Source: Candidatus Omnitrophota bacterium (GTDB taxonomy: Bacteria > Omnitrophota > Omnitrophia > Omnitrophales > Aquincolibacteriaceae). From it: DNA of 64,000 nt. The translations under genes and the position numbers were made by a program. Positions 4,525-64,000 of this stretch are shown here, in pieces (position 1 is the stretch's first letter; every line of letters begins with the position of its first letter). The stretch lies in assembly GCA_043803685.1 (NCBI GenBank), contig JAZDJU010000072.1, positions 1 through 64,000 on the forward strand, written 5' to 3'. The notes beneath the pieces were generated by a model. The model saw only the letters and a program-made list of their open reading frames with translations, was not told the DNA's origin and did not search any database.

Positions 4525-4531
4525 TTCTCCC

Positions 4532-5272
4532 ATGACCGCTCGCGCGATCTCCCAAAAACTCGGCATCAACATCGACCATGTCGCGACCCTGCGCCAGGCG
4601 CGCCTGGGGGAAGAGCCCGCGGTTCTCGAGGCAGCGCTTGAGGCGGAGCAGGGAGGCGCCGACAGCATTACGGTTCATTTGCGCGAAGACCGCCGGCACA
4701 TCCAGGATGCCGATGTTTTTGAACTGATGGAAAAGATCTACGTGCCGCTTAATCTCGAGATGTCCGTTTCGCCTGAGATCCTCAAGATCGCGCTCCAGGT
4801 CGCGCCCGAAAAGGTGTGCCTCGTTCCCGAGAAACGGAAGGAGCTGACGACCGAAGGCGGGCTGGACCTTTTTTCGAAAAAAGGTCCTTTGCTCCGGACG
4901 ATCGACGCGCTTTCGGGGAAGAAGGTTGAAGTCAGTCTTTTTATCGATCCGGTGGAGGTTCAGGTGCGCGAAGCGGCCCGGCTTGGGGCCTACGCGATCG
5001 AGATTCACACGGGCTCTTATGCCAATGCCGCCGGCAAGAAGCAGGATAAGGAACTTTTCCGGATCCGTGAGGCCGCGCGTCTGGGCCGGAGCCTTGGACT
5101 TCACGTTCATGCCGGGCATGGTTTGAATTACGAGAATATTTTTCCGCTGTTGGCGGTCCCGGAGATCACGGAATTCAATATCGGTCACTCCATCGTCAGC
5201 CGCGCCGTGTTCGTCGGTCTTGCCCGCGCCGTCCAGGAAATGAAGAAGATCATCACCAGCGGTAAGAAATAA
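4532..5272 (+). CDS. pdxJ: Pyridoxine 5'-phosphate synthase
   Basis: LGINIDHVATLRQAR, ITVHLREDRRHI, TTEGGLD, HAGHGL, NIGHSI. Confidence 0.97.
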   Translation: MTARAISQKLGINIDHVATLRQARLGEEPAVLEAALEAEQGGADSITVHLREDRRHIQDADVFELMEKIYVPLNLEMSVSPEILKIALQVAPEKVCLVPEKRKELTTEGGLDLFSKKGPLLRTIDALSGKKVEVSLFIDPVEVQVREAARLGAYAIEIHTGSYANAAGKKQDKELFRIREAARLGRSLGLHVHAGHGLNYENIFPLLAVPEITEFNIGHSIVSRAVFVGLARAVQEMKKIITSGKK

Positions 5273-48354: not shown

Positions 48355-49761
48355 TTACATCCCAGGCTTCATCTCGATCGAAGGCGCTTCCGGTCCTTTG
48401 CTCCCGAAGGCCCGCGGAAAAATATCATCCCAGTGGGCGGTCAGGCTGATCGTGAATGCCTGGGAATAAGAGTAGTAGTCCCCGTCGACCGAGGAATTAA
48501 GGAGCGCCGCGTTCTCCCCGATGCTGTTATTGATGCTCCTCGTGAAATAGAACGAATTGTAATAGCAGATGTCCGCGGTCAGGTATTTATTGATCTCGTA
48601 GCCCGCGCCGAGGCTGATCGCCAGGTGATTCGAGTCAGGGACGGCGGGGATGAACGATTTGTTGGGAATGGGGGTCCAATAGAACCAGCTTCCCCCGCGT
48701 AGCGTCAGCTTCTTGGTCAGTTTATGACTGACGCCGAGCTGGATCCCGAAGCTGTCTCGATAGTCCTTGTCCGCGGAGCGGATGTTGTTCAGGATGGTGT
48801 CATCCCTCACATTTCCGGACGGGTCTGCCACGAAATACTGGCGTTTATAGAGCGACCAATGAGACCATGTGAAATCCGCCTCGTAGTGGGTCTTTTCCGT
48901 GGGCTGATACGCGTAGGCCCAGGTCATGTTCATCGGAAGCGTGACCTTGGTATGAACACCGGTTTCATAATTCCGGAGTCCCAGACCGCCGAAGGCCGCG
49001 GGGACATTGGAATTCTCCACCTTCGCCAAGCCGCTCGTTTTCACGATCACCGGGCTTCGGAAATAATAACCCAAACGGTGCTTCGGAGTGAGCTTGATCA
49101 AGGTGCCCAATTGCCATCCCCAGTGGTTTCCCGAGGTATTGATCCGGATCTGTCCGTCAGGGCTTGTGACGCCGAACGGGGCGGTAATGAGATTGTTCGG
49201 ATAGCCCTGAACCCCGCCGAAATCCGTGATCCGGTACCACACCGGTCCGGCGCCGACGGAGATCTTGTCGGTGACCTTGTAGGCGATCGTGGGCTTGATC
49301 GAGAACATCTTCAGATAATTGTTCCAACCCGCGTAATGCACCGCCGGATCATTCGAATTGTACTTGGTCATCATTCCAAAGGGCGAATCAAAGCCGACGC
49401 CGAGACCCAAGCGGTCGCAGAACATTTTCCCGGGATTGACGGTCATATAGCCGGTGGGAACCAGGTTGAGCGTTCCGGAGCTGTGGGTGTCGCCCGTCCT
49501 GTTGTTATCTTTGTATGTGATCAGGCTGATGAAATTCGCGTTTGTCTGGAACTGCACGCCCGGGAGGTCCGCGATGCCGGCCGGGTTATACGAAATGGCC
49601 GCGGGTTCGTCTGGTGAGGCCGTTCCTGCGCCGCCCAAAGCTAGCTGTTTGGCGCTGAACGAGGCGTTCTCATAACCGCCGGAACCGACGGCGAAAGCAG
49701 AAGAGGGGGCGAGAGAAATAAAGGCGATCAGGATCGCGATCGACAGGATCTTTTTCAGCAT
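48355..49761 (-). CDS. FadL/OmpP1-family outer-membrane transporter
   Basis: Signal peptide, LALGGAG.A..D..A..YNPAG, PFG, W..WS, PD. Confidence 0.88.
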   Translation of the reverse strand: MLKKILSIAILIAFISLAPSSAFAVGSGGYENASFSAKQLALGGAGTASPDEPAAISYNPAGIADLPGVQFQTNANFISLITYKDNNRTGDTHSSGTLNLVPTGYMTVNPGKMFCDRLGLGVGFDSPFGMMTKYNSNDPAVHYAGWNNYLKMFSIKPTIAYKVTDKISVGAGPVWYRITDFGGVQGYPNNLITAPFGVTSPDGQIRINTSGNHWGWQLGTLIKLTPKHRLGYYFRSPVIVKTSGLAKVENSNVPAAFGGLGLRNYETGVHTKVTLPMNMTWAYAYQPTEKTHYEADFTWSHWSLYKRQYFVADPSGNVRDDTILNNIRSADKDYRDSFGIQLGVSHKLTKKLTLRGGSWFYWTPIPNKSFIPAVPDSNHLAISLGAGYEINKYLTADICYYNSFYFTRSINNSIGENAALLNSSVDGDYYSYSQAFTISLTAHWDDIFPRAFGSKGPEAPSIEMKPGM

Positions 49762-50024
49762 GAGCGAACACTCCTTCGTTAGGGTGCAGAGTCTGCGTCT
49801 CTTTAAAAATGTTCTTGATGGATCTTTTACGGAAGAAAACAGCTCGTAACTTGTGTTGTATTATCGAGTTGGGCGCGTGTTTTCTTCAGCGTTTATTTGG
49901 TGTTTTGAAGAGATAATCTCAAAAAATGATAAACGATGCTAGTTAATGCTATATCGAAATTCTAGATGCCTTGTTCTTATCAAAATAAGGTGTTAGTTTT
50001 TTATCAGAAAAGGGAGTTTACGCG

Positions 50025-50231
50025 ATGTCTTCAGAAGAACTTGAATTTCGACTCTCGCAGATCCGGGACAAAAAAGTCGCCACCGAGATCCGTCGTTTTC
50101 TTTTGAACCTTTTCCTTCTTTTTGACGGCACACCTCCGCCGCATATTCAAACCTACATCGCCGAGATCATGGAACTCGTGGAAGCACGCCGGGTTCCCGA
50201 ACGCATACGCGTCGCTCTCAATCCGATGTAG
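50025..50231 (+). CDS. 68-aa hypothetical protein
   Basis: AAGGGAG RBS and ATG; no recognised motif. Confidence 0.5.
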   Translation: MSSEELEFRLSQIRDKKVATEIRRFLLNLFLLFDGTPPPHIQTYIAEIMELVEARRVPERIRVALNPM

Positions 50232-50249
50232 GATGCGGCGGCGGGCCGG

Positions 50250-50378
50250 CCGTCATAAATACCGCGCCACGATCCACGTTGCACGGGCCACAAATACCGC
50301 ACCACGCGCTACGTTCCACGAGCCACGTACCACGAATCCCGCATTCTTCGAAGTACTCCGTACGCCGTACACCTTCCG
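50250..50378. repeat. Bipartite heptamer array: CCACG-core units then CTCCGTA-like units
   Basis: cacgatc cacgttg cacgggc ... cacgcgc tacgttc cacgagc cacgtac cacgaat ... gtactcc gtacgcc gtacacc. Confidence 0.85.
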
Positions 50379-50609
50379 CGGTCCGCTATACACCCCTACT
50401 ATTGATAGACTCTTAACGCTTTACGAACGATTCCGCAGAAATATTCCGCTTCTTCCCGTTCTCATTTCCTTCGCGCGGAGTTAGGCTCCTGTCAGCCCAA
50501 ACTTATCATTGATTTCCAAGAGGGTAGTTTGGACGGCCCCATCCCGCTTCCGGCGGGATGATGAGTATTGGGACCGCTCGTTTTAAAAAAAGTTCTGAAG
50601 GAGGAAGCC

Positions 50610-50855
50610 ATGGAGCATGTCACGGAAACACCCAAGATCTCGCCGCAAGATCCGATGTCGAATGGTACCTGGGTCCAGATCACCTTCATCCTTGATCCTG
50701 AACTCTACCAGATCCTTTGGGAACGCGCTGAGGAGGAACATCGGACCCTTTCTTGCCTCGCCCGCGAAGCCGTTATCCATTTTTTGAAAAGAACAAACAT
50801 TCCGCATTTAGCCAGAAAAACCTCTGTCGCGAAAAATTCTGAGGACCTTCTATGA
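50610..50855 (+). CDS. Small ribbon-helix-helix-like protein; its stop overlaps the giant gene start
   Basis: QITFILDPELYQIL..RA.EEHRTLS..AREAV..FL; GAAGGAGG RBS; ATGA overlap at 50852-50855. Confidence 0.65.
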   Translation: MEHVTETPKISPQDPMSNGTWVQITFILDPELYQILWERAEEEHRTLSCLAREAVIHFLKRTNIPHLARKTSVAKNSEDLL

Positions 50856-53800
50856 ACTTTAACTGTTCTTGCCCGCACAAATTTACTGCACTATTTGTCG
50901 CTTTTGTTTTTGGTTGGAACCAGATCCTTTGGGCGGGGGAGATCCTTCCGAAGGATTATGTCGTTCCTTCGACGCAGCTTTTCGCGACAACGCCCGTGAC
51001 AGGAACGATCCAGGCGATCACAACGCCGCCGGTCAAGACTTTCACAACGACAGACTTTTTATCAAATGAACAGGGGCCTTTGTCACCTTCCACTCCCGCC
51101 GCCAACGATATCACTCACTATGATTACGAGCGTTATGATTTTCAGGATGCGCTTGATCTTCTGAGGCCGGAGTTCTCAACCGCGGTGATCGTGAAAAAGA
51201 TCACGGTTGAAGACCTGAGAAAGCTCGCGGAGCTTCCATTCGAAACCGGTGTGATCGTACTTCATGGGGAGATCGTTCTCTTTACTTCCGGGGGTAAAAG
51301 CGAACTCGGGATCCTTTCGGCCGCCAGTCAGTTGATTAAAAAAGCCACTTTTGTTTCGCATACGCATACCGGAGGATCCTTGGTGACGGGACCTTCCGAA
51401 TTCGATCTCGCTCATGCGGGGGATCAAGAGTATGTGATCACTGAGGAAGGTGTTTATGCCTACGATCGCACAGGGCTTCTTAACAATGGGGACGTCTGCT
51501 CCTATGGCACCTACATTGAAAAACTCAATTGGGCTGTTAAAAATGCCATGCCCGAAAAGGATCAGGTCGAAGCCCGGAAAGACCTGAACGCCTTTATCGC
51601 CGATCAGGATCTCTATAACGCTTCTTCCGACCGTAAAGTGTTTCGTTCGGCAGAACCCCCTGCGGTATCAGGAACGACTTATTCAGCGAGCGCGATCACG
51701 GCGTTATCATCGACTCCTTTAGCTAGCGCTAGTTTGAAGACGACATTGCCAGGGCAGAGTGCCAACGGGACGAACAATTTCGTGCAGTATGATTCGACGA
51801 AGTTCTCATTTGAATACAGTCTGCCTGTGGAGCCGGAGACGGTGATTGATGCGGACAGTGAGAATGATGATTTTGCGGTGGGACAGATCTCGTGGGGTTA
51901 TTTCAACAGTTCGAATGTCTTTGTGGGGAGCGGAGCTAATGTGGGGAGTCCGTTAGTGATGGCACTAAGGGCGGATCACGTGATGCGAGCGAAGGTAGAG
52001 GTGGTGGACACGACGGGAGCGAAGGCGCAGTTTTGGGCGGATCTTTCAACGGGTTACCAGAATTTTAGTTTTGATGTCAGCGGGTTGAACGAGTCGAGTA
52101 TCGCGTCGGTGACCGTGGTGTCGGATGTGGCACATGGTGGGACGAGCGGTAAGATTTACGTGATCACGAATGGTCTGAGTTATACGCCAGTGGTGGCGGG
52201 GACGACGTATTCGGCGAGTGCGATTACAACGCTACCTTGGGCTCCTGCAGCAACTTCCAGCCTTGGTACGACCTCTGCTGGGCAGAGTGCCAACGGGACG
52301 AACAATTTTGTGCAGTATGATTCGACGAAGTATTCCTTTCAATACAGTCTGCCTGTGGAGCCGGAGACGGTGATTGATGCGGACAGTGAGAATGATGATT
52401 TTGCGGTGGGACAGATCTCGTGGGGCTATTTCGATAGTTCGAACGTGTTTCAGGGGACGGCTGGGAATGTGGGGAGTCCATTGCTGATGGCGTTAAGGGC
52501 GGATCACGTGATGCGAGTAAAGGTGGAGGTGGTGGATACGACAGGTGCGAAATCCCAGTTTTGGGCAGATCTTTCAACGGGGTACCAGAATTACAGTTTT
52601 GATATCAGCGCGTTGAATGAATCGAGCATTGCCTCTGTGAGCGTGGTGTCAGATGTGGAGCATGGCGGAACCGCAGGGAAAATTTACGTAATAACGAATG
52701 CCCTGAGTTACACGCCTGTGGTGGCGGGGACTGTCTACAATCTTGCCAACATTTCGAGGTTTTTCGCGAGTCCGGTGGTGGGATCAAGTCACGGGACGAC
52801 AGTAGCCTCAGACACAGCGACGGTGACAGCGACGCAGACGAGTTCGACGATGTTTAATGTGAATTCCCAGGTGAATGTGGCTGGGGAATACACAACGAGT
52901 ACGATCGGATGGGGCTCATTTAATAGTTCGAACGTGTTTGTGGGGACCGGGGAGACTTTAGCGAATACCGTGATGTTTGCGTTGAACGGGACCGCCGGGA
53001 AGAAGTTGAAGGTGGAGTTTGTTAACACATCGGGGGTGAAGAAGTCGTTCTGGGTGACGCCTGCTACGACGCATCAGAATTATGCATTTGATATTACGGG
53101 GCTTGGGACGGTTGGGATGATCAATTTCGTGAGTAGCGAGGTGGGGACGACGGCGTACACGGTGGAGACGAAGGGGTTGGCTTTTACTCCGCCTGTCCAA
53201 TATTTTTACGACAGTGCCGGCAATCTTATCCAGAAGATCGTCAGTACCTATTATGACAACAAAAAACCTGCCACGGTCGATGACTACCGGTATTCCAACG
53301 GGCTTCAGACCTTTCTATATCAAACGACATACGATTCGGCTGGCCTGAAGACTTCTTATAAATCGACTACGTATCATACCGACGGGAAAACGGTCAAAAT
53401 ATTCACGGCCTATTTCTTCAGCGCAGGTGTTAAAACAGGCTATAACCAGGCCACTTTTAGTGCTGCGGGCGTGAAGACTCAGGATAGCGCTGTGACGTAT
53501 TATCCGAACGGTACGACGGTGAAGACTTCCGAAAGCCGTCCCTTTGTGAACGGTGTGCCCACGAATTATTATCAAATCCAATACGATTCTTCAGGATTAA
53601 TGATCGGAAGCAGCTCAACAGCCTATTACCCGGACGGAAGAACGGTAAAGTCATCTCAGGAAGATTATTATGAAGTAGGAGTTCGGACAAGTAAGAAAAG
53701 TTCCTCATATACGATAAGTGGAGTGAAGACCCAGGATTGGAATGTCACATATGACTCGAATGGCACCACGGTTAAGACGATCGATGACATTCGATATGGG

Positions 53801-56800
53801 AATAACCTTCGGACCTATTTGTACCAGACGGTCAACGATTTCGCCGGCGTAAAGACCCATTATATTATGACGACTTATCATCCGGATGGTCAGACGGCCA
53901 AGGTGGTTAAGGATGAGTATTACGCAGGGGCGGTCAGAGCGGGCTACAACCAGGCGACCTACAGTACCACGGGTGTGAAAACGCAAGATAGTGCGGTGAC
54001 GTATTATCCGAATGGTACGACCATGAAGACTTCCGAAAGCCGTCCTTTTGTAAATGGTGTACCCACGAATTATTATCAGATCCAATATGACCCTGCCGGA
54101 CTAAAGACCGGAAGCACTTCAACAGCTTATTATTCAGATGGAAAGACGGTCAAGTCATTTCAGGAAGATTTTTATGAGAATGGTGTCAGAACACGAAAAT
54201 ATTGTACAGATTACAATACTGCGGGTTTGCGGACGCATCTGCTGATCCAGGTCTATTACACGGATGGAAAGACAAAAACCTCAGACGATTACGATTACAC
54301 CGGATCGCGTCTTATTAAACGCATCTTAAAGGAATATAGCTCGGCCGGGATTGAAACCAGTAGCTTAACGGAAAATTATCCCCCGCAGATTCTCACGAAC
54401 ACGAGCGGATACGCTGTGCGTTACACGGCGGACGGAAATAGTTACGAAGAAACGATCTCTCTTACGGAAGGTTTGAACGCGGTCCAGAAGACAGTGAATG
54501 GTTATAACGGAACACCGGTTCTGATCGAATGGAAGATCACGCTGGACACCGTACCACCCGAGATCCTTTTCACTTCACCTTCGGTCACCAACCAAAAAAA
54601 TTACACTTTGACCTATACCGCCGACGGTATCGCCAAGACGAAAGTTTTTGCAGATCTCGAGGAAGGAGTCAACGCGCTTTCTATTGCGGAGGTTGATCCG
54701 TCTGGCAATCAAACCATTGCGAATTGGAATGTGACGGTAGATACGATCGCCCCAATCGGTGCGATCACCATCAATGGAGGAGCTTTGTACACGTCCTCAA
54801 AAGAAGTAGCGTTAGATCTTTCGGGGGCTGATACGGGGTCAGGCGTGAACCAAATGAGATTTACTATTGATAGCGGGACAACTTGGACGGCTTGGGAGTC
54901 ATTCGCTGCAACAAAGGGGCTGACGCTTGCGGGTGCGGACGGGGATAAAGTCATCCAATATCAGCTTCGGGATCAAGTTGGAAATCTTAGTCAGGTTTAT
55001 TCTGATTCCATCGCGCTGAAGACAATCCCTGTCATTCAATTTACGTCCGCGACAGCGGTTACAAATTCCGAGTATTTACTGACCTATACGGTCAACGGGA
55101 CGGCTCAATCGGAGCGTTGGCAGCTTTCTGCGGGCGTGAATCCGATTTTAGTTCGAGTCCCGGGAGATTTTTCCACTTTCGTGAGACTTGACGTCACGCT
55201 CAATCAACCCGATATGACCCTTCCTGCGATGCCTGTTCTACCGACGCTTCCGGAGGGTCTCATTAGCGTGACGGCTCAAAACGGGCTTATCATAAAATAT
55301 GACGGGAGCACGATCGTTTCCGTCGAAAATCCAGGAGAATATCAGCTATATCTTCCTCAGTTTGACGTGAACGGTACGCTCACGGATGGAGTGTTTCAGT
55401 TTTCAAATGGCGATAAACTTCTTTATCAAAACTCCAAGCCGGTTCTTAAGATAACGAGTTCGGGAGAGAAAACCCTTTATGGCAGCACGGGAATCGTAAA
55501 TTCCGTGATCGAACCAGATGGGAGTCGGATTTGGTTCAGTTACAGGGTGGACGATCAGGGCCAAGTTCTTTCGGTTCTGTCCCGAGATGCTTCTGCAACG
55601 AGCTTGTATGAAGGAGGCATCCCCTCCCGGATCCTGATGCAAGACGGTTCCGATATCCGTTATGAAGACGGTCTTTTGAGCAGTTATCGCGACGCAACCG
55701 GCAATCTCTATCAATACCAGATCGTGGAATTGCGGTCTTCCGGCACGATCACCGGTTACCGATCCATTTTGTCCGATGTCACGCCTGCGGGGAGCGCTTC
55801 CCCGATCCCGTTTTCCGCGATCTCGGCGGATCTTTCTCAATACCCGGCTATTCAAAGTACCCTGGGTAACAAGATCTCGACTGAGATCGATTATGACGCG
55901 AACTCGAAAATGACAAAGTTCATTTCGGGAAAAGGAGAGGTTCTTACGCTTCATAATCAACTGCCCGAGTATCTCACGGACTCGTCCGGTAATCTGAAAC
56001 TCTTTGAAAGCACAGTGAATTCCGCAGGAACTCTTTCTTCGGTGGCTCTGACACAAAATAGTGTTCCTTCACAGGTTTTTGATGCCAGTGGGAATATCCG
56101 TTCCATTGCTTTGAGCGACGGAACGGTGTTTCAGGTTACGGATCACAAACTCGGGGCAGTCACGCTCTCCGACGGTAGCGTTCTGACCGATCTAAGGTGG
56201 AATGCTTCGACCCAGATCATGACGGATTATGTGAGAACGTACACGGACGGGACAAAGTCCATTTACGCCAATTCCCACATGGTCCGCAAGGAAGAGCCTA
56301 ATGGAAACATTACGAGCTATATTGATCTGAACGGGGTCGATCAGCCGGATCTTATGACGACGGCCGATGGCCGGACGTATCACTTTATTACTTTCCAGAA
56401 CGCGCAAGGGCTTTGGGACCGGAAGACCGAACTTGTAAAAATGACACTTTCGGATGGCAGCCGTGTCGAGTTCGAGAATGGGAAACCTGTGCGTTATATC
56501 AAGAGCGAGCAGGTCCAACTCGACCCCCTTAGTGTTCCAATGCTTTCTTCTGATCGTTCCTATGTCGCTTCGGTAATCCTGTCGAACGCGGAATTGCGTT
56601 CTCTGACGATCGACTCCGCGGGAACGATTCTTTCAGGGGAGATTCTTTTTAATGACGGAACGCAATATTTCATCGAAAACGGCGCTCTTGTCAAACAGAT
56701 CACGGCAGATGGGAAAATCGTAGAGGTAGAGACCACGGTCCCTCTTTCTTTTGAGAAGTCCATGCCGGTCAAACCGGAACCGCTTACTCCGGCTGAGGTC

Positions 56801-59800
56801 GATTACCGGAACGAATTGATTGATGCGCAGTTCCGTTATTTCACAGATCCGTTGGGGATCGATGCCGACAGCGGGATGCCGGTCGATCATTATTTAAGTG
56901 ACACTCATCAGCAATCGAGCTACAGCCAGGCGACGCTCGTAGGCTTTTGGGCGGAGATCCTGGCGACTATTGCGAGAGGAGATTACGCGCCTTCTTCGCT
57001 CGGCAGGGCCCAGGCTTTTCAAAAACTCGAATCGCTTCTCGCCGAACTCCAGAAAGTCCAGTCCCAGGCCGGATGGAACGGGATGTTCTCATTTTTTGGG
57101 ATCTCGAAACAGACACAGCCTGTTTACGATCAAAGCGGAAATCAGACCGGGACGAAACTTGTTGTGAGCTATAGCCGGCAGTTTGACAATATTGGCATTG
57201 GCGATAACCTCAATCTTTCGGTGAGTCTCGCGAGTGTTGTGGGCGCTTTGTCGGGAATAACACTTGAGGATCCGACGCTCAGTTCCCAAAGGGACGCGAT
57301 CGTTACACGCATTCATTCGATCCTCTCTCTTCAAGATGCCGGGTACGCGAAATTTTACGATACCTCGGCCAATCAGTTTTATAGTGTCCGCAAATTTGAT
57401 TCAAATGGGGACTCTGCTTTTGATAGTGGGCATATGGATCGTGTGTTCAACGAGTTCTTACCGGGACTTGTGTGGCTCGCGGCCCGTAATCCGAGTTACA
57501 AACCTGCGCTAGATAATCTGGACGTGACGATCCGGCCCTATACAACGCGGGACGGTACGAGGATCGAAAACGCCGTGCCTTTTGACGGCGGAGCTTTTCA
57601 GATGTTTTGGCCGCTTATGCACGTCGACGAAACGAAGTATCCCGAGTTTAACGTTGCGCTTAGCAACTTTCTTTATTCTCAGGCGGAATTTGTCAGTCAG
57701 AACGGTATCCCCGGTCTTCTTTCGGCAGGTGACGATCCCGGGAATGGTTATAACGGGAAGATCGGATTAACGTCAGCTTCCGAGACGGATGACCCTCTAT
57801 CGACAAGTGTTGGCTCTCTCTATGGAACAGCGGGTGCATTTTTGCTAGCGCCCCATTACACGCTTCAATTTTTAAAGAATATCGAGGCGAAATTCCCCGG
57901 GGTCCGGACGAACTCGGGGCTTGTGGATTCCATAGCGCTGAGAAACGGACAGGCTGTTTATTCCAAGCAAGCCTTTGGCGTTGATCAAGCGTCGTTCATT
58001 CTTTCACTGCTTGGAACCAGCCAGAATTATTTCACACAATATCTCCGTCAAAAGGGCTTAGAGGATCAGTTTGATGCTCTTTATAAGGGGATGAGTTTTA
58101 ATCTCGCGCCTGCAATCGCTCAAAATCCACCGCCGCCGAATTTCGATCTTTCTACCCCGGCTCTTTACAGTGGGATCCATCAACAGCCGGATGGTCTGGC
58201 AAATGCGCTTACCAAACGTAGTTCTTTTATTCCCATGATCGTGGATCCCGAGCTTGGGGAGGGGCGCATCTATGATTATCTGGACCCAGAGGGGAATTTT
58301 CATCATACCGAGATCGAATTCGGAACAGGAAGAGATCTCAAAAAGATGCCTCTTGCTCAATATTTGCTTCTTCCGGGGCGGGGCGATATGTCGCGCTTGC
58401 TTTTTAGCGCGGTCAGTTTGGATCTGTTGAATGAAGCGACGACTCAGGGTGCTTTCTACACGCCTTCCTATGGATATGCGAACAGTTCCCTCGCAACAGA
58501 TCCCATCGGAGAGGTGCGTCATATCGATTTTAATCTTCAGAGGATCTCGTCCCCGGTCGGACTTTATGCGACCTACAATAACCGAGATCTGTCGCAGTAC
58601 GATTACATTTCGGTTCCGGTACGCCTCGGTTCTAATGCTCCGGAAGGGGTAAGCCTCAAATTTGAGTTTGCGGGGATGGGAGAAGTTTTTGTGACGGGAG
58701 CACTGACTCGGGATTGGCAGTATGTACAGATTCCGGTGAGCAAACCCGCAGGCCTTTTGCAGAAGATCGCCGTCGTCATTCAATCACCGGATGGTAAGGC
58801 CGTGAGTGGGGATGTTTATCTTGGGCCGTTGAGCGCTTTCAAAGTCCGGACTTCGAACCAGATGGACTGGCAGGCCATGCTCGGGAAAAGTGATTCTGAG
58901 ATCCGGAGTTTTCTCAAAAGTAAAATATCGCGTCAATCCACAGGCGGGGGCGTCATGGAAGCGGATGAGGTTCTCGAGGATTTCAAGCTGGATTCCGATG
59001 GGAAGCTTGTGGACGGAGTGTTAAAGCGGGCTGACGGAAGTATTCAGTATTTCCGTAATGGGCAGCTTATGAAGTGGGTTTTTCGAAATGGCAGGACCGT
59101 CCTTTTTGAAAAGGGTCTCGCGACGTTCATTCTGGATCTGGCGCAGGGCAAGCTTCAAGAGGGGCGTTTTTATTACGACAGTACCTTCCGTGGCGAGATC
59201 CAGTCCTTCGTGATGCAGGATAACGACAGCAAAAAGATCTATGGATCTGATGGAAAGCTTCAGACTGTGGTCAAGAATGGATGGATCACCCATTTCAAGG
59301 ATGGCAAGATCGATTCGATCGCGCTTTCGGAATCCACGCTGACGCGACTTGTTTTTGCGGAAGATCAAAGTTTGCTGCGGGCTCACGTCAAAATGAACGA
59401 TGGACGTGAGTTCGACATTGATCAGGGAGGGGAACAGGCTGTTGTAAGACCCAACGGAGCCAAGGTCTACTACAAGGGATCCCGGATCGTGGGAATTGAG
59501 ACTTCCCAGAACGGGAGAACGGACTTTACCTACGCGACAAATTCAAGCGGACAACTGACGGGTGTTACCGCGTCCTTTCATGAAACGGTGATGGATAGCC
59601 TGGGTCATTCAAGTATCGCGTTGCGGACGATGTCACTTTTTGAATATCTTTTGCGGCCGGAGCGTAGTTTGGAGAAGCAGGAGATCCTCAGGGAACCGCC
59701 CCAGCAGATCCTTCCGATTGCTAATATCGCAGGATTTAGCGTGGGGTATCTTCCAAGCGGTGAGATCACCAACGGTCAAAAATTTTATCAAGACGGGGTT

Positions 59801-62800
59801 CCTTACGGCTGGTATCAATTTCGTTATAACAGTTTAAGTGGACCCACCCTTGGGATGGTTGCCGGGAATTATACGCAGCCGGTCAGCCTTGGGGCCTATG
59901 ATTTTATCCAGGTGACGCTTGAGCAGGATCCGGGCATGACGTGGAACCAGGATTTTAATTTTGTTTTGAAAACTCCGACCCGGCAGACCTTGTATACATT
60001 TGAACTCAATAACGCGCCGAACCAGTATCAATCCTTTGGGTTTTCATTGGCGGGGAAGTCCGGGAGCGAAGGGGAGATCACGCTCGAAGTGGTCCGCGAA
60101 GCTGGCGGCGTCGGGAAGACCGGGCAGGTTAACATTAAGGATATTTCCTATCTCGCGATCAAGAGCCTCGATCATCCACTTTGGGAAAATGATGTTTCTA
60201 TCAATGCTACGGAGCTCCAGGGATTGAAGATCGAGGCGGATACTTATACGGATATCGGCGTGGAAATAGCGTCACACGTCCCACTCTCTTATGACAAGCT
60301 TGTTCCGCTTTTGGATATGCCCTCTTCGGTCTCTTATTCGGACAAAGATTCGACGCATCTCGGCCAGCTCACAGGCTTCAGGCGTTTTGACGGCGCCGAA
60401 GTGAGTGTGAGCGGTTCCGATGTCACGAAAGTGGTCCTTCCCGACGGGACGGTGAATGAATATTCCCAACAAGGGAACGTCTCTCAAGGAACGATCAAGG
60501 ATGGCTCCGGATCCGGCGCCGCGGTGGGCAGTCTCAATTACCACTATGGCGAGCTTCGAAAGATCACCCAATCCGACGGCAAGGTCTATGAGCTGAGTTA
60601 TGAATTCGATGCCCAGGGTGACCCGATCACGCTCATCAAAGACGATCTGACGGGGGACGTCCGCCGGTTTAAAGACGGAAAACTCATCGAATCCATATCG
60701 AGCGGCGGCGTGAGTACGACTTATGAGTACCAGAACGGAGAATTGATCGGCGCGGAGCTTTTCTATAAAAATCGGGTGCTTCAAAGTTCTAGCTATCAAT
60801 TCATAGGCGATGAAACACAGGTCACGGATGCCAAGGGTACAACGTGGTATTACGATGCGAATGGGAACCTGAAGAAGCATCTCACAAAAGACGGCTATCT
60901 TTATGCCTATTCGGATTATTCCGCGACACCTCAAGATCTTCCCGAGATGCCGCAGGATTTCAAGTCGGCGAATGTTTTTAACGCGACCGATCTTCGCGCT
61001 GTGAGTCTGATCGGTTATGAGGCCAAGGACGGTATGCAGGTCAGACAAGGGGATGAAGGTCTTGTGGAAATCCTTTCTCCTGCTGGGGACAAGGCCGTCA
61101 ACGTTGTCTTGGATGATGACCGGAAGATCAAAAGCGGGCAGATCCAATTCGCAAATGGATTGATCCTCAGGATCGAGAATTATCTTCCCGTGGGAGGTCG
61201 ATTGACGGATGGAATTCTGTTTTCGGCGAATTTTCCAACGGGGAATGGGAAGGTCACTCTTCTGCAGGACTCCACGGGTGCCTATACCGGTAGCATGTTC
61301 GAGAAGAACGGAACTTATTACAGCTATGATGCTTATGGTTTTCTGACGAAGATATCTTCCCCGAATGGCGAGTCCCAGCAATTCACCTACTTTCTGGAGG
61401 CCTCCGCAAGCGACGCCTATGGCGTGTTGAATCGTCAACAGGTCGCGTTTAACGGCGTTCCTTTTCCTGAAGAAATGACAATCCAGGCGGGGAATGATCT
61501 TGTCTTGAGCGGGGTGAGCGGTGTTTTGGCGAAGCGCGAGGGCGACACCGGTTTTATTATTAGCGCGTATGATGATTCCTTGAACCAGTGGAAAGTCCTT
61601 TCCGGAAAATTCTCTTCAGACGGTGATCGCATTCTTATGAGAAACTTTCTTAAGAACCTCAAGCCCGGACAATATGTTGCTGTTGCGGTCAAAGATCCCG
61701 ATTTTTCAAGAGCCGGAGAAGATATCCTGGCGCTTTTAGAGGGGATCGGATCCGGACAGGTTCGGACGGCCAGCGCCGGGAATCAAACCTGGTGTTTGTT
61801 CGGAAATGAATATTTGAAAAAGGGCGAAGGCCGGGAACAGGCCGGAGGAAGTTCTTTCTCAACCGTCACGGAAGAAAAAATATTTTCCGTTCTCGCTGAG
61901 GGAAGCAATCCCGTTTATAACAGAATGAATATGTTTTTGTCCGTGCCGAAAACAGCGGCGGACGCCTACGCATCATTCCTGAAGGCTTACGAGCCTAACA
62001 AACCCAAAGGGGACCTTGAGGAGATCACGGTTTACAGCAAAGAAAACCAGATCGTTTATTCTGAGAGCGTGAACGGCGTCCGTACGTTCTATGACAAAGG
62101 AAAGCCGCGCGAAACGTACACAAGTGACGGGGAGCTTCTCTATACGCACGAATACGGTTGTCCCAATGGTGGGTGCCCGGACCCGAACGATCCCTATCTG
62201 GCAAGAGTGACGCTTGTCAAAGCCCGTCTTGATTTTGAGACGGAATCCGCGAAGGCGCATCAGCAGATCGAACAGGTCAAATTTGACGCGCTTCACCAAC
62301 TTGCGGAACAAGAAGAGGTCGCTCAGGCCGGCATTAAACAGGAAGTCTCTAACAGCATTGCCGTGCTTGATGCCTATATCAGTCAGCTGCAGTCCCAGCG
62401 CTATCGGAGCGTAAAGGTCTGCAAAAGCGCCTTTTTGGGATTCGGGAAAAAGTGTCATGAAGAACAATATGATGTCCCGGGGATTGCCGGCATGATCAGC
62501 GAAGCGCAAAATCAAAAGGTGGAGCTTCTCCAGAATATCCAGCCCGGGCAGATCGCGACGATTCCCACGTTGATCGCGCAAAAAAAACTCGAGATCGAAG
62601 CCGCGACTACTCAAAAAATGACGGATCTCGCCGCGCAGGAAGCGTCCGTTCTTCACGATATTTATGAACGGGAAACAGCGCCGGTTCTTTCCGACATTTA
62701 CAGACGCTTGCTGGGCCGGGACCCTTCCAAAGAGGAGGTCTCCTCCGAGATCGCGCGATTCGGGACGATACAGGCGGTCGATCTGAACCGGACCGTTACA

Positions 62801-64000
62801 GAGATCAAGAGCTCGAATGAATTTCAATCCAAGACCAACGACAAAGCCGCGATCATCAACCAGGTTCAGACATTCCTTAACTCGTATGTCGCAACTGCCC
62901 ATGATCCGGCCGCACGTGCTGCTCTTGCGCAGTCCCTTCGGCTCGATCCCTCCGAGATCGTGGATCTCCGCCAGGAAGAGGTGACGGCGATCATCGGTTG
63001 GCTCGAGGCTCGGGATCTTCATTTCGGGCAGTCCGCATTTCTGTCACTCAAAAGCATGCTTTTCTCCCGCGGGATCGATGTGCCCATGGTGACGCTTGGG
63101 GTTGAAACCGTGCTTGTGGATATTCTCACCGGCACGATCAACAAGTTTACTGAAGGGGATCTTGTGCTTTCTGTATTTTCATTTCAACGTGCGGCAAAAA
63201 TCCACGGAGCGGACATTACCGGGGTCCGCTACGCTTTAAGCGACCTTAAGGCGCTTTATCAATCAGTCTGTGGTTTGTTGTCTGTGGACTGTGGTCTAAG
63301 AATGATCGCGCATGTAGCGGGAAACCACTTTGTGGTGATCACGGCTGTGACGGCAGAGGGCATCACCTATTTTGAGACCAATCAAGGCCATGCCGGTGAG
63401 CTTGTTAACGGGACTTATGATCAATTCATGAAAGTTTGGGATACGGGGAACGGGACAGGGCATCTTGTGGTTTTTAAGGATCAGGCCATTACGGCCAAGG
63501 TGATCCATGATCAAACAGCGATGAAACTCCGGGGAGCATTTTTCCCTTTGGTATGGCTTGCCTGGCTTGCGGTCGCTTCGTTTGTTCTGTCGGTGGCAAG
63601 CGTTGTCGTGTCTTATATTAGTCCGACTCTTGGCAAGATCCTGGGGTATGCGGCCATGGTGGTCGGGATCGTTGCGATCGCGGCGAGCGTTGTGAATTTC
63701 GCGGTCCAGGGATTTAGCATGGCGCTTAATTCCATTAATAGCGTCGGGTTCTTGCAGTCGGTCCAGAACGGATTTACGATGCTAGGGAATGCGATCTGGG
63801 AAGGAGTGGCGCATGTCGGCCAGTTCCTGAAGCAAGGGTTTACGTTCCTTGCGGATGCTTTTACGGGAAATTTCAGCGGTTTGGGTGCCGGGATCACACA
63901 GATCGGCAAATTTTCGATGGACGGCGTAAAGGTCATGTTGGATTCCTCCGGCGTGCTTGTGAAACAAAACCTGACTTTCGGGCAAATGGTGGGCCGGAGC
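50852..64000 (+). CDS. Giant exported multidomain protein, at least 4383 aa, 3'-truncated by the window end (absent from the ORF track)
   Basis: ATG 50852 after GAGGA; my translation is continuous from MNFNCSCPHKFTALFVAFVFGWNQILWA to KQNLTFGQMVGRS; the track lists no + strand ORF in this frame here, consistent with no stop. Confidence 0.93.
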   Translation, partial: MNFNCSCPHKFTALFVAFVFGWNQILWAGEILPKDYVVPSTQLFATTPVTGTIQAITTPPVKTFTTTDFLSNEQGPLSPSTPAANDITHYDYERYDFQDALDLLRPEFSTAVIVKKITVEDLRKLAELPFETGVIVLHGEIVLFTSGGKSELGILSAASQLIKKATFVSHTHTGGSLVTGPSEFDLAHAGDQEYVITEEGVYAYDRTGLLNNGDVCSYGTYIEKLNWAVKNAMPEKDQVEARKDLNAFIADQDLYNASSDRKVFRSAEPPAVSGTTYSASAITALSSTPLASASLKTTLPGQSANGTNNFVQYDSTKFSFEYSLPVEPETVIDADSENDDFAVGQISWGYFNSSNVFVGSGANVGSPLVMALRADHVMRAKVEVVDTTGAKAQFWADLSTGYQNFSFDVSGLNESSIASVTVVSDVAHGGTSGKIYVITNGLSYTPVVAGTTYSASAITTLPWAPAATSSLGTTSAGQSANGTNNFVQYDSTKYSFQYSLPVEPETVIDADSENDDFAVGQISWGYFDSSNVFQGTAGNVGSPLLMALRADHVMRVKVEVVDTTGAKSQFWADLSTGYQNYSFDISALNESSIASVSVVSDVEHGGTAGKIYVITNALSYTPVVAGTVYNLANISRFFASPVVGSSHGTTVASDTATVTATQTSSTMFNVNSQVNVAGEYTTSTIGWGSFNSSNVFVGTGETLANTVMFALNGTAGKKLKVEFVNTSGVKKSFWVTPATTHQNYAFDITGLGTVGMINFVSSEVGTTAYTVETKGLAFTPPVQYFYDSAGNLIQKIVSTYYDNKKPATVDDYRYSNGLQTFLYQTTYDSAGLKTSYKSTTYHTDGKTVKIFTAYFFSAGVKTGYNQATFSAAGVKTQDSAVTYYPNGTTVKTSESRPFVNGVPTNYYQIQYDSSGLMIGSSSTAYYPDGRTVKSSQEDYYEVGVRTSKKSSSYTISGVKTQDWNVTYDSNGTTVKTIDDIRYGNNLRTYLYQTVNDFAGVKTHYIMTTYHPDGQTAKVVKDEYYAGAVRAGYNQATYSTTGVKTQDSAVTYYPNGTTMKTSESRPFVNGVPTNYYQIQYDPAGLKTGSTSTAYYSDGKTVKSFQEDFYENGVRTRKYCTDYNTAGLRTHLLIQVYYTDGKTKTSDDYDYTGSRLIKRILKEYSSAGIETSSLTENYPPQILTNTSGYAVRYTADGNSYEETISLTEGLNAVQKTVNGYNGTPVLIEWKITLDTVPPEILFTSPSVTNQKNYTLTYTADGIAKTKVFADLEEGVNALSIAEVDPSGNQTIANWNVTVDTIAPIGAITINGGALYTSSKEVALDLSGADTGSGVNQMRFTIDSGTTWTAWESFAATKGLTLAGADGDKVIQYQLRDQVGNLSQVYSDSIALKTIPVIQFTSATAVTNSEYLLTYTVNGTAQSERWQLSAGVNPILVRVPGDFSTFVRLDVTLNQPDMTLPAMPVLPTLPEGLISVTAQNGLIIKYDGSTIVSVENPGEYQLYLPQFDVNGTLTDGVFQFSNGDKLLYQNSKPVLKITSSGEKTLYGSTGIVNSVIEPDGSRIWFSYRVDDQGQVLSVLSRDASATSLYEGGIPSRILMQDGSDIRYEDGLLSSYRDATGNLYQYQIVELRSSGTITGYRSILSDVTPAGSASPIPFSAISADLSQYPAIQSTLGNKISTEIDYDANSKMTKFISGKGEVLTLHNQLPEYLTDSSGNLKLFESTVNSAGTLSSVALTQNSVPSQVFDASGNIRSIALSDGTVFQVTDHKLGAVTLSDGSVLTDLRWNASTQIMTDYVRTYTDGTKSIYANSHMVRKEEPNGNITSYIDLNGVDQPDLMTTADGRTYHFITFQNAQGLWDRKTELVKMTLSDGSRVEFENGKPVRYIKSEQVQLDPLSVPMLSSDRSYVASVILSNAELRSLTIDSAGTILSGEILFNDGTQYFIENGALVKQITADGKIVEVETTVPLSFEKSMPVKPEPLTPAEVDYRNELIDAQFRYFTDPLGIDADSGMPVDHYLSDTHQQSSYSQATLVGFWAEILATIARGDYAPSSLGRAQAFQKLESLLAELQKVQSQAGWNGMFSFFGISKQTQPVYDQSGNQTGTKLVVSYSRQFDNIGIGDNLNLSVSLASVVGALSGITLEDPTLSSQRDAIVTRIHSILSLQDAGYAKFYDTSANQFYSVRKFDSNGDSAFDSGHMDRVFNEFLPGLVWLAARNPSYKPALDNLDVTIRPYTTRDGTRIENAVPFDGGAFQMFWPLMHVDETKYPEFNVALSNFLYSQAEFVSQNGIPGLLSAGDDPGNGYNGKIGLTSASETDDPLSTSVGSLYGTAGAFLLAPHYTLQFLKNIEAKFPGVRTNSGLVDSIALRNGQAVYSKQAFGVDQASFILSLLGTSQNYFTQYLRQKGLEDQFDALYKGMSFNLAPAIAQNPPPPNFDLSTPALYSGIHQQPDGLANALTKRSSFIPMIVDPELGEGRIYDYLDPEGNFHHTEIEFGTGRDLKKMPLAQYLLLPGRGDMSRLLFSAVSLDLLNEATTQGAFYTPSYGYANSSLATDPIGEVRHIDFNLQRISSPVGLYATYNNRDLSQYDYISVPVRLGSNAPEGVSLKFEFAGMGEVFVTGALTRDWQYVQIPVSKPAGLLQKIAVVIQSPDGKAVSGDVYLGPLSAFKVRTSNQMDWQAMLGKSDSEIRSFLKSKISRQSTGGGVMEADEVLEDFKLDSDGKLVDGVLKRADGSIQYFRNGQLMKWVFRNGRTVLFEKGLATFILDLAQGKLQEGRFYYDSTFRGEIQSFVMQDNDSKKIYGSDGKLQTVVKNGWITHFKDGKIDSIALSESTLTRLVFAEDQSLLRAHVKMNDGREFDIDQGGEQAVVRPNGAKVYYKGSRIVGIETSQNGRTDFTYATNSSGQLTGVTASFHETVMDSLGHSSIALRTMSLFEYLLRPERSLEKQEILREPPQQILPIANIAGFSVGYLPSGEITNGQKFYQDGVPYGWYQFRYNSLSGPTLGMVAGNYTQPVSLGAYDFIQVTLEQDPGMTWNQDFNFVLKTPTRQTLYTFELNNAPNQYQSFGFSLAGKSGSEGEITLEVVREAGGVGKTGQVNIKDISYLAIKSLDHPLWENDVSINATELQGLKIEADTYTDIGVEIASHVPLSYDKLVPLLDMPSSVSYSDKDSTHLGQLTGFRRFDGAEVSVSGSDVTKVVLPDGTVNEYSQQGNVSQGTIKDGSGSGAAVGSLNYHYGELRKITQSDGKVYELSYEFDAQGDPITLIKDDLTGDVRRFKDGKLIESISSGGVSTTYEYQNGELIGAELFYKNRVLQSSSYQFIGDETQVTDAKGTTWYYDANGNLKKHLTKDGYLYAYSDYSATPQDLPEMPQDFKSANVFNATDLRAVSLIGYEAKDGMQVRQGDEGLVEILSPAGDKAVNVVLDDDRKIKSGQIQFANGLILRIENYLPVGGRLTDGILFSANFPTGNGKVTLLQDSTGAYTGSMFEKNGTYYSYDAYGFLTKISSPNGESQQFTYFLEASASDAYGVLNRQQVAFNGVPFPEEMTIQAGNDLVLSGVSGVLAKREGDTGFIISAYDDSLNQWKVLSGKFSSDGDRILMRNFLKNLKPGQYVAVAVKDPDFSRAGEDILALLEGIGSGQVRTASAGNQTWCLFGNEYLKKGEGREQAGGSSFSTVTEEKIFSVLAEGSNPVYNRMNMFLSVPKTAADAYASFLKAYEPNKPKGDLEEITVYSKENQIVYSESVNGVRTFYDKGKPRETYTSDGELLYTHEYGCPNGGCPDPNDPYLARVTLVKARLDFETESAKAHQQIEQVKFDALHQLAEQEEVAQAGIKQEVSNSIAVLDAYISQLQSQRYRSVKVCKSAFLGFGKKCHEEQYDVPGIAGMISEAQNQKVELLQNIQPGQIATIPTLIAQKKLEIEAATTQKMTDLAAQEASVLHDIYERETAPVLSDIYRRLLGRDPSKEEVSSEIARFGTIQAVDLNRTVTEIKSSNEFQSKTNDKAAIINQVQTFLNSYVATAHDPAARAALAQSLRLDPSEIVDLRQEEVTAIIGWLEARDLHFGQSAFLSLKSMLFSRGIDVPMVTLGVETVLVDILTGTINKFTEGDLVLSVFSFQRAAKIHGADITGVRYALSDLKALYQSVCGLLSVDCGLRMIAHVAGNHFVVITAVTAEGITYFETNQGHAGELVNGTYDQFMKVWDTGNGTGHLVVFKDQAITAKVIHDQTAMKLRGAFFPLVWLAWLAVASFVLSVASVVVSYISPTLGKILGYAAMVVGIVAIAASVVNFAVQGFSMALNSINSVGFLQSVQNGFTMLGNAIWEGVAHVGQFLKQGFTFLADAFTGNFSGLGAGITQIGKFSMDGVKVMLDSSGVLVKQNLTFGQMVGRS
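51672..53195 (+). repeat. Internal 528-bp (176-aa) modules of the giant gene: two near-identical copies and one diverged copy
   Basis: cagagtgccaacgggacgaacaattt at 51755 and 52283. Confidence 0.9.
53200..54380 (+). repeat. Tyr/Thr/Gly-rich YD/MORN-like repeats with a 504-bp duplication
   Basis: VKTQDSAVTYYPNGTT.KTSESRPFVNGVPTNYYQIQYD encoded at 53471 and 53975. Confidence 0.85.

Follow-up and report, generated by a model that had tools for sequence, protein, structure and literature searches.

We analysed a stretch of 64,000 nucleotides (hereafter the window) from a Candidatus Omnitrophota bacterium. The window corresponds to bases 1–64000 of contig C72 (92,888 bp) in the metagenome-assembled genome (MAG) G000, which comprises 2.89 Mb in 133 contigs and is 91% complete with 6.64% contamination. 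We focused on a giant gene that runs off the 3' end of the window. A preliminary description of the same DNA had noted a hidden open frame of 13.1 kb at this position. The frame is real, free of in-frame stops and conserved in relatives, and the gene continues past those 13.1 kb. Briefly, a single open frame begins at ATG 50852 of the forward strand and has 4,383 codons inside the window, where its 3' end is open. Translation of 50852..64000 gave zero stops. An in-frame stop occurs at 50840, just 5' of the ATG. Hence, the start region of the gene is fixed. The preliminary description had proposed extension to the stop codon. On contig C72, whose numbering continues that of the window, the frame ends at TGA 66215–66217, 2.2 kb beyond the window. 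The whole gene, 50852..66217, encodes 5,121 amino acids (aa). The last 738 residues (Gly-rich region, junction and tip) and the coupled 3' gene fall outside the window.

An exact copy of the giant protein and 13 long relatives (46–74% identity over 51–75% of the query) were found in a protein collection. Several of these relatives carry NCBI names from Candidatus Omnitrophota MAGs. Hence, the giant frame is a conserved gene and no chance frame. Five relatives are colinear with the giant protein from aa ~1230 through the final residue. For the remaining relatives, the alignment ends at aa ~4530–4750 and unrelated tails follow. Across the family the body is conserved, with hundreds of invariant columns in the alignment; variation is found in the front modules and in the final ~430 residues. 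We conclude that open frame 50852..66217 is a real, intact gene. The features below all lie on the forward strand, and those beyond position 64000 were read on contig C72.

50852..64000: giant gene, part inside the window (whole gene 50852..66217)
50852..50938: predicted Sec signal peptide, aa 1–29 (by inspection)
51134..51622: JAB/MPN-like head, aa ~95–257 (motif alignment, model and weak fold matches)
51659..53197: three tandem beta-rich modules of ~180 aa each, aa ~270–782 (self-comparison)
53198..54391: repeats with an 84/168-residue period, aa 783–1180 (self-comparison)
54539..55231: Ig-like modules, aa ~1230–1460, where the conserved body begins (Pfam below cut-off)
55232..56731: beta-rich, G/Y/D-rich region, aa ~1461–1960 (YD-like by eye)
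56798..58090: predicted GH192-like (alpha/alpha)6 beta-1,2-glucanase domain, aa 1983–2413 (match to 8xuj_A)
60329..61411: RHS/YD repeat region, aa ~3160–3520 (Pfam and NCBIfam)
61613..61804: ILEI/PANDER-like domain, aa 3588–3651 (PF15711)
62189..62806: helical region with a YRRLLGRDP motif, aa ~3780–3985 (family alignment)
62969..63496: predicted C39-like domain of papain fold that lacks the catalytic Cys, aa ~4040–4215 (family alignment and distant relatives)
63542..63706: two strongly hydrophobic helices, aa 4231–4254 and 4263–4285 (Kyte-Doolittle)
63707..64000: start of a Gly/Ala/Ser/Leu-rich amphipathic region, which continues to aa ~4640 (~64771, beyond the window)
to ~64921, beyond the window: conserved junction motif, aa ~4640–4690 (alignment of relatives)
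64919–66217, beyond the window: variable C-terminal tip, aa 4690–5121 (alignment of 11 loci, model)
66214–67071, beyond the window: TPR gene with a signal peptide, 285 aa, starting 4 bases ahead of the giant gene stop

Most of the domain order in the preliminary description could be placed along the protein. It was right in outline: the protein is an Omnitrophota giant of modular build that bears a signal peptide and includes modules related to glycans and others that resemble peptidases.

The C-terminal tip and its downstream partner

The relatives share a junction motif, GL....E.YAT..F.R.T.E.L, at aa ~4650–4685 and diverge after aa ~4650–4690. The tip that follows comprises a short beta-hairpin stretch and then an alpha/beta-hydrolase-like domain. 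Eleven loci share the last 432 residues of the giant protein. Invariant positions in these tips are GNGFWN (4835–4840), S4958 (F-x-H-S-G), D4992 (GDG) and H5047 (G-A-x-H), and the elbow is A-H-S-G-D/N rather than G-x-S-x-G. In a structural model with a predicted local distance difference test (pLDDT) score of 61, the Ser is flanked by a strand and a helix, with the Asp and His placed after later strands. VIA searches with this model returned ~44 of 50 rows titled esterases, lipases, thioesterases or alpha/beta hydrolases. Z scores were 6.3–7.8 over model residues ~140–426, a range that the tool rates 'middling'. ESM Atlas leads to DUF687 (0.90) and DUF900 (0.86) were weak, with recognition below the tool's mark, and were set aside. 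The tip family is rare, with 76 representatives among 1.84 billion, and lies at the C-terminal end in 17/17 matched proteins of at least 2,000 aa. With low confidence, we take the tip to be an uncatalogued alpha/beta-hydrolase-like putative serine hydrolase with S4958, D4992 and H5047 as candidate residues.

A look at the downstream genes for immunity partners, also proposed in the preliminary description, was decisive. A translationally coupled TPR gene, encoding a signal peptide, overlaps the stop of the giant gene. Of the 11 loci with the same tip, eight have the complete TPR gene after it and two have a copy truncated by the locus boundary; the remaining locus extends 401 bases past the stop of its giant gene. 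The TPR gene was found at 0/18 loci with other tails. In a sample of 66 genomes of the family, a full-length TPR gene stood directly after the tip in 9/9 observable genomes, with one copy carrying a TAA. The TPR protein matches TPR_Slam weakly (24.5 bits vs a cut-off of 35.2). No Pfam toxin or Imm family matched the tip or the TPR protein of the giant gene.

Other tips have other partners. Homologue P0009, a 5,006-codon frame of genome G082, has the same JAB head and 48% identity over aa 1206–4531. It ends in Pfam Ntox10 (80.2 bits; 86.1 bits for locus L024 in G082; cut-off 26.8). An 85-aa open reading frame (ORF) that overlaps the stop of the Ntox10 gene in G082 is Imm27 (52.2 bits, cut-off 27.3). 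Imm27 is listed as the primary immunity protein for Ntox10 (Zhang et al. 2012, PMC3482391). Two other genomes have a different hydrolase-like tip and then a 257–258-aa signal-peptide ORF, with weak TPR matches in one of the two. In one further genome, a TPR-like ORF of 177 aa with a signal peptide comes after a divergent tip. The tip types observed are thus that of the giant gene, other hydrolase-like variants and Ntox10. By gene order, tip type and downstream gene type co-vary.

Tips and partners also occur apart from giant genes. Genome G026 contains an array (locus L073, G026:C19:30500-39500, minus strand) 70 kb from its main gene. First in the array is an orphan tail that starts at the junction motif and is paired with a small ORF encoding a signal peptide. 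Another orphan tail, likewise paired with a small signal-peptide ORF, comes next, and then a Y1 transposase gene. These are followed by a 156-aa fragment of a tip of the giant gene's type (63% identity), a TPR gene, a Y1 transposase gene and another TPR gene. The two transposase genes are nearly identical. In G030, an orphan TPR gene stands after a Y1 transposase, and such transposases also follow tip/immunity pairs in G082, G030 and G026.

We determined how widely the C-terminal module is distributed in 401 Omnitrophota genomes, using aa 3701–5121 as the query. It was found in 118/401 genomes, including 54/65 of the same family. It nearly always ends frames of 2,000–8,000 codons and also occurs in frames of 26,028 and 45,037 codons. 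Comparison across relatives points to a conserved carrier, a junction, exchangeable C-terminal domains, cognate 3' genes and orphan cassettes. Together, such features typify a polymorphic toxin system. We consider the giant gene a probable member of an Omnitrophota polymorphic toxin family, in which it would encode an exported toxin carrier.

The carrier and its surroundings

Between the body and the tip lie a C39-like domain, two hydrophobic helices and a Gly-rich stretch. Pfam scans of the giant protein were run on six overlapping pieces at E up to 0.1. PF03412 was not detected in the giant protein by Pfam, and a search of the whole G000 genome at E up to 0.01 found no canonical C39. PF03412 was above cut-off in four distant relatives (P0019–P0022) that align across the C39-like region. 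A profile of the C39-like family matched the solved C39 7n87 weakly (E 0.11), with the His of HFVVI and the following acidic residue aligned. In hhalign comparison with a canonical C39 of a related genome (E 4e-4, probability 35%), H4159 pairs with the catalytic His and E4175 with the catalytic Asp. All ESM Atlas neighbours of the domain are C39 clusters (score 0.91), which we treat as a lead only. Invariant residues are H4057, F4058, G4059, S4061, A4062, H4159 and E4175. The nucleophile segment reads H-F-G-x-S-A-F-L-S-L, with the invariant S4061 or L4066 as candidate residues, and, aligned with one canonical C39, the catalytic Cys is missing from 15/15 family members. Hence, cleavage by a cysteine peptidase is unsupported. 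The C39-like domain of the preliminary description stands as a papain-fold signal, but without the catalytic Cys. On its sequence, we assign aa ~4040–4215 as a C39-like domain and not as a C39 cysteine peptidase.

The hydrophobic helices that had been described at the end of the window were found. There are two, with 19-residue Kyte-Doolittle means of 2.24 and 2.44, and they probably form a membrane hairpin. The Gly-rich stretch that follows (~350 residues) has weak hydrophobic peaks, and GxxxG occurs at 1.97 per 100 aa vs 0.68 in the whole protein.

The conserved body begins with the Ig-like modules. In the giant protein itself, Big_13 (17.4 bits) and OmpL47-type (24.9 bits) matches are below cut-off. 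Big_13 and Big_3_2 are above cut-off in relatives, which bears out the Ig-like domains first described here. The next region, aa ~1461–1960, has dense invariant G/Y/D columns in the family alignment and no match in Pfam or NCBIfam. The domain at aa 1983–2413 matched 8xuj_A with E values of 1.3e-13, 2e-16 and 1.6e-16 over ~430 residues. This was the only meaningful match in PDB searches with the whole protein and the whole-family profile. 8XUJ is EeSGL1 of Endozoicomonas elysicola, the founding GH192 beta-1,2-glucanase (Protein Sci 2025, PMC12102758). GH192 belongs to clan GH-S. Mutagenesis showed that its E221 and D149 (D148 in places) are needed for catalysis (PMC12102758). We took Asp 150 and Glu 222 of the 8xuj chain indices as D149 and E221 of the paper. 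D2118 and E2201 of the giant protein align with these acids and are invariant in the family alignments. The preliminary description had called this region glucoamylase-like. A glycosidase-type domain is indeed there, but its type is refined. We assign it as a predicted GH192-type beta-1,2-glucanase (GH192 proper or a sister family) that keeps both catalytic acids.

The RHS/YD repeats and the ILEI domain, both listed earlier, each exceed the Pfam cut-off. The repeats scored 28.6 and 47.2 bits for PF05593 (cut-off 22) and 29 bits for TIGR01643 (cut-off 15.8). NCBIfam Rhs-core models had no match in the giant protein. ILEI (PF15711) scored 32.1 bits (cut-off 27) and is present in relatives too. 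The helical region after ILEI contains the invariant residues R3951, L3954, G3955, R3956 and D3957. Its proposed likeness to DUF4214 did not hold up, with 0 matches in the giant protein and one in 15 relatives (E 0.11). Paired cysteines were observed at aa 4140/4147, 3857/3868 and 3770/3775, of which C3857 and C3868 are invariant in the family. Such pairs would fit disulfides of an extracytoplasmic protein. We disregarded matches to NolX, T3SS_needle_F, TraK_N, Tcp10_C and ribokinase, each of which fell far short of its cut-off. Ricin-type lectin chains at E 0.7–0.97 in the PDB searches with the whole protein and the family profile were likewise disregarded.

The variable front end starts with a probable Sec signal peptide at aa 1–29, judged by its composition of K10, the hydrophobic run FTALFVAFVFGW and then LWA|GE. 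The head that follows contains the motif E131...H170-x-H172-x9-S182-xx-D185, whose positions are invariant or conserved to 90% or more across an alignment of 30 heads. The spacer from HxH to S is 9 residues vs 7 in the JAB/MPN+ (JAMM) zinc motif. When the 30 heads were scanned with Pfam, Prok-JAB was the commonest match, always below cut-off (7/30 heads, best E 0.0013); the head of this giant protein had no Prok-JAB match. Foldseek with the head model (pLDDT 80.7) placed Rpn11, PfJAMM1, AF2198 and RadC on top, though weakly (best E 0.13). VIA was also weak, with a best Z of 4.6 (5ld9, root-mean-square deviation 3.6, 99 residues aligned). Six of its top ten were named JAMM, Rpn11, BRCC36 or RadC. 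A PDB profile search gave no JAB match and only TFIIF at E 0.11. The head is probably a very divergent JAB domain. This agrees with the JAMM-like domain first suggested, given the E..HxH..S..D motif conserved in 30 heads and JAB/MPN proteins at the top of two weak fold searches. JAB-like heads occur in 68 of the 401 genomes, all but one in the same order and often in several copies. They ride on frames of 300 to 62,866 codons. G000 itself has a second signal peptide and JAB-like head on contig C63 (539–1555, minus strand), 71% (tblastn) to 76% identical. Located at the contig end, this copy presumably begins a further large gene that the assembly truncated.

Self-comparison confirmed the three beta modules as internal repeats. 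Copies 1 and 2 (301–480 vs 477–656) are 80% identical and the third copy is 33–39% identical. For the repeats at aa 783–1180, Pfam returned Tcp10_C alone, below cut-off. The MORN assignment once given to these 84-residue repeats finds no support in the Pfam scan.

The genes around the giant gene and its TPR partner are as follows.

48355–49761, reverse strand: FadL/TodX-type outer-membrane channel gene, diverging from the giant-gene operon
50610..50855, forward strand: small ribbon-helix-helix-like ORF, 81 aa from ATG 50610 with GGAGGA ahead
67164–67847 of contig C72, beyond the window: IS200-type Y1 transposase gene (PF01797, 47.5 bits)
67907–68347 of contig C72, after the Y1 transposase: MORN_2-repeat protein, 146 aa

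The TGA of the small ORF overlaps the ATG of the giant gene (ATGA), i.e. the two are translationally coupled. Its match to RHH_1 has an E value of only 0.14, yet covers the whole profile, and homologues lie 5' of three related heads (L036, L037 and L046). The small ORF may encode a regulator of the operon. Further upstream on the same strand are hrcA, grpE, dnaJ, a thioesterase gene and gpsA. The MORN_2 protein 3' of the transposase could be the product of an orphan immunity gene (YwqK-type). At gathering score, Rfam found one tRNA in the whole window and no other match. In 49600–51000, Rfam at E up to 1 had no match, c-di-GMP riboswitch included. Promoter and terminator scans around the start and end of the giant gene gave nothing above shuffled expectation.

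Other observations concern the wider contig and genome. Positions 71083–79861 of C72 (locus L003, beyond the window) contain a run with four B12-binding radical-SAM genes, one more radical-SAM gene, a methyltransferase and a GT2 glycosyltransferase. A 1,550-aa ORF at 23583–28235 of the window (forward strand) has very strong GC and AT skew (0.27–0.31). It contains a 348-bp tandem duplication (25977–26654) that encodes an E/K/Q-rich, coiled-coil-like stretch. Genome G000 has 27 stop-to-stop frames of at least 1,500 codons in 2.9 Mb. The longest, of at least 10,126 codons (C59) and at least 8,492 codons (C57), both run off contig ends.

Relation to known systems

Sec-dependent RHS-repeat carriers and alpha/beta-hydrolase toxin tips are known polymorphic toxin classes (Zhang et al. 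2012, Biol Direct 7:18, PMC3482391). Like the systems in that survey, the giant gene has a signal peptide, a long repeat-rich carrier, a junction, an exchangeable C-terminal domain and a 3' cognate gene. Orphan cassettes (in relatives G026 and G030) and a catalogued Ntox10/Imm27 pair (in a homologue) are further likenesses. Unlike those systems, the protein is giant (~5,000 aa), with a secreted JAB-like N-terminal head and an embedded GH192-like glucanase and ILEI. Moreover, a C39-like/hairpin/Gly-rich pre-toxin module replaces the Rhs core with its DPxGL self-cleavage site. There is no DPxGL site. Hence, the giant protein is no Rhs protein in the strict sense. Its own tip and TPR partner match no catalogued Tox or Imm family.

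Giant proteins of the Omnitrophota have been described as 'Archaeovorin' and 'Dockerin-type' (West-Roberts et al. 2023, bioRxiv 10.1101/2023.11.21.568195), and long proteins have since been surveyed (Nielsen & Lui 2026, bioRxiv 10.64898/2026.06.07.730766). For Omnitrophota giants, these two texts report C39 domains, carbohydrate-active domains and membrane helices at the C-terminus. The protein described here comes from the same phylum, and its multidomain body, predicted to lie outside the cell, combines domains of carbohydrate-active and peptidase-like types. Conversely, the published giants have 10,000 to >30,000 aa compared with 5,121 aa here. The Pfam scan of the giant protein found no match to SecA_DEAD or dockerin. 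As West-Roberts et al. describe their giants by lengths of at least 30,000 aa, SecA_DEAD, or dockerin/TSP3 repeats, the protein is not an Archaeovorin or Dockerin-type giant. The accessible sections of West-Roberts et al. 2023 and Nielsen & Lui 2026 describe no toxin/immunity cassette logic for giants. The word 'polymorphic' is absent from both texts, and 'Rhs' and 'PF05593' are absent from the 2026 text. Literature searches for links between Omnitrophota or Omnitrophica and polymorphic toxins or Rhs toxin/immunity turned up only a passing remark in the Lipocone preprint and the West-Roberts preprint itself. Polymorphic toxin logic built on an Omnitrophota giant protein would be a new combination of two known kinds.

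Individual domains also have known counterparts. The C39-like domain shares with C39 of bacteriocin ABC transporters a papain-like fold signal, an aligned His (HFVVI) and acidic residue, and adjoining membrane helices. HlyB carries an inactive C39-like domain (CLD). Unlike in the transporters, there is no catalytic Cys (an invariant Ser or a Leu is nearby), the Asp is replaced by an invariant Glu and no ABC domains are present. The position near the C-terminus of an exported protein also differs and makes a location outside the cytoplasm probable. Lipase effectors (Tle) of the type VI secretion system (T6SS) are paired with periplasmic immunity proteins (Tli), and Sel1/TPR-type immunity to PldB exists. 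The giant gene resembles Tle/Tli in that a serine-hydrolase-type putative effector is paired with an adjacently encoded signal-peptide helical-repeat protein. It differs in having no T6SS link and in that the effector would be the tip of a giant Sec-exported protein. Tle families have no sequence match in the giant gene; a weak Tle3 match (21.3 bits, below cut-off) occurs only in distant relative P0020. Finally, ~430 residues of the glucanase domain are alignable with EeSGL1, and both catalytic acids are kept and invariant in the family. EeSGL1 is a 447-aa enzyme, whereas the domain here is distant in sequence, lies inside a giant protein and has an activity predicted from sequence.

Interpretation and biological meaning

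As an exported toxin carrier, the giant protein could work as follows. It would be exported via Sec and anchored by the helix hairpin. The body (Ig-like, YD/RHS, glucanase and ILEI) would carry a variable front end and would bind and cut target-cell glucans. The pre-toxin module, comprising the Cys-less C39-like domain, two helices, Gly-rich stretch and junction motif, may release or translocate the tip. The tip would then attack lipids or other esters in neighbouring cells or prey. The translationally coupled signal-peptide TPR protein would be the cognate protector in the producer periplasm, and tips may be switched by recombination at the junction. We infer both toxicity and delivery.

Several points weigh against the toxin reading. 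Topology is the weakest: there is no evident route for a 5,121-aa protein across the outer membrane. Furthermore, the tip is placed after two strongly hydrophobic, stop-transfer-like helices, and so would sit at the producer's own membrane. The Rhs self-cleavage motif PxxxxDPxGL (regex P.{4}DP.G) had no match in the giant protein, whose sole DPxG[LW], at aa 1080, lies well away from the tip. Since this motif is absent and the C39-like domain is Cys-less, no releasing peptidase is established. The fold call for the tip is weak and of low confidence, with a model pLDDT of 61 and all Z below 8. No Pfam alpha/beta-hydrolase model matched the tip, its 11 close relatives or the 32 more distant members scanned from the 76 found. 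A PDB profile search with the tip returned nothing, and the one Foldseek match, GtfA/B at E 1e-3, is meaningless (TM 0.12). The Ntox10/Imm27 pair belongs to a homologue and not to the giant gene itself. A tblastn search of the 91%-complete genome G000 found no orphan cassette or second module copy. Finally, the TPR partner could be a chaperone instead of an immunity protein.

The chaperone role also belongs to the best competing explanation, which we consider unlikely though worth weighing. Here, the protein would be a surface fibre that attaches to another cell and digests envelope glycans. The C-terminal hydrolase would be a further envelope-degrading enzyme and the TPR protein an export or assembly chaperone. 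Consistent with this, the glucanase domain keeps both catalytic acids, ILEI is above cut-off, and relatives carry F5/8 type C, beta-helix and GH115_C heads. West-Roberts et al. proposed attachment and cell-wall processing for Omnitrophota giants, and the weak TPR_Slam match (24.5 bits, cut-off 35.2) hints at an export helper. However, a fibre leaves unexplained why swapping among close relatives is limited to the final ~430 residues, why Ntox10 is followed by Imm27 in a homologue and why orphan tip/partner cassettes lie beside transposases. The two explanations partly overlap because the body of a toxin carrier may well do the attaching. The preliminary description had suggested a machine for adhesion and degradation. 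The glycan-active modules agree with that suggestion, but the main function looks polymorphic-toxin-like, with exchangeable tips and cognate genes.

Much less probable is a housekeeping role, in which a membrane-anchored envelope enzyme complex would serve the turnover of periplasmic beta-1,2-glucans and lipids in its own cell and would not target others, with variable ends due to drift. The two strong membrane helices, the signal peptide and the neighbouring hrcA, grpE, dnaJ and gpsA on one side would suit such a role. Beta-1,2-glucans are bacterial periplasmic glucans (PMC12102758). Yet the tips differ in kind, Ntox10 vs hydrolase-like, and not by drift; transposase-flanked orphan cassettes exist; many genomes within the family lack the module (54/65 have it); and the tip family is very rare, at 76 representatives among 1.84 billion. 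That there is no working single gene, and that a chance or decaying frame or a misassembly has joined several genes, can practically be dismissed: the MAG has 133 contigs and 6.64% contamination, but 15.4 kb without a stop, five relatives from independent assemblies that are colinear from aa ~1230 to the last residue, hundreds of invariant columns and the same module order on many contigs all speak against it.

The toxin reading can be taken further, although only tentatively. The Cys-less C39-like/hairpin/Gly-zipper/junction module might be an undescribed delivery-release device that defines a phylum-wide class of polymorphic toxins, ending large proteins in ~30% of sampled genomes. Part of the giant proteins of these ultra-small epibionts or predators might then be toxin carriers. 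In such carriers, the tips would insert into the membranes of prey or rivals, and recombination with orphan cassettes flanked by transposases would switch them.

Giant genes of the Omnitrophota have been published, and their function is largely guesswork. The giant gene described here gives the widespread 3,000–8,000-aa size class a testable logic of carrier, pre-toxin module, exchangeable tip and cognate protector, anchored by the catalogued Ntox10/Imm27 pair. It also brings new objects. One is a putative toxin family, hydrolase-like and uncatalogued, whose partner is of the TPR type. Another is the secreted JAB-like head, which is frequent in a single order, and a third is the C39-like domain, which lacks the catalytic Cys and has an invariant set of Ser, His and Glu. 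A predicted beta-1,2-glucanase-type domain, which hints at the content of the target envelope, is a further one. In groundwater communities, the variable tips and immunity genes could be used as markers of conflict between strains. Should the tips prove toxic, they would provide direct evidence of how uncultured nanobacteria harm neighbouring or prey cells.

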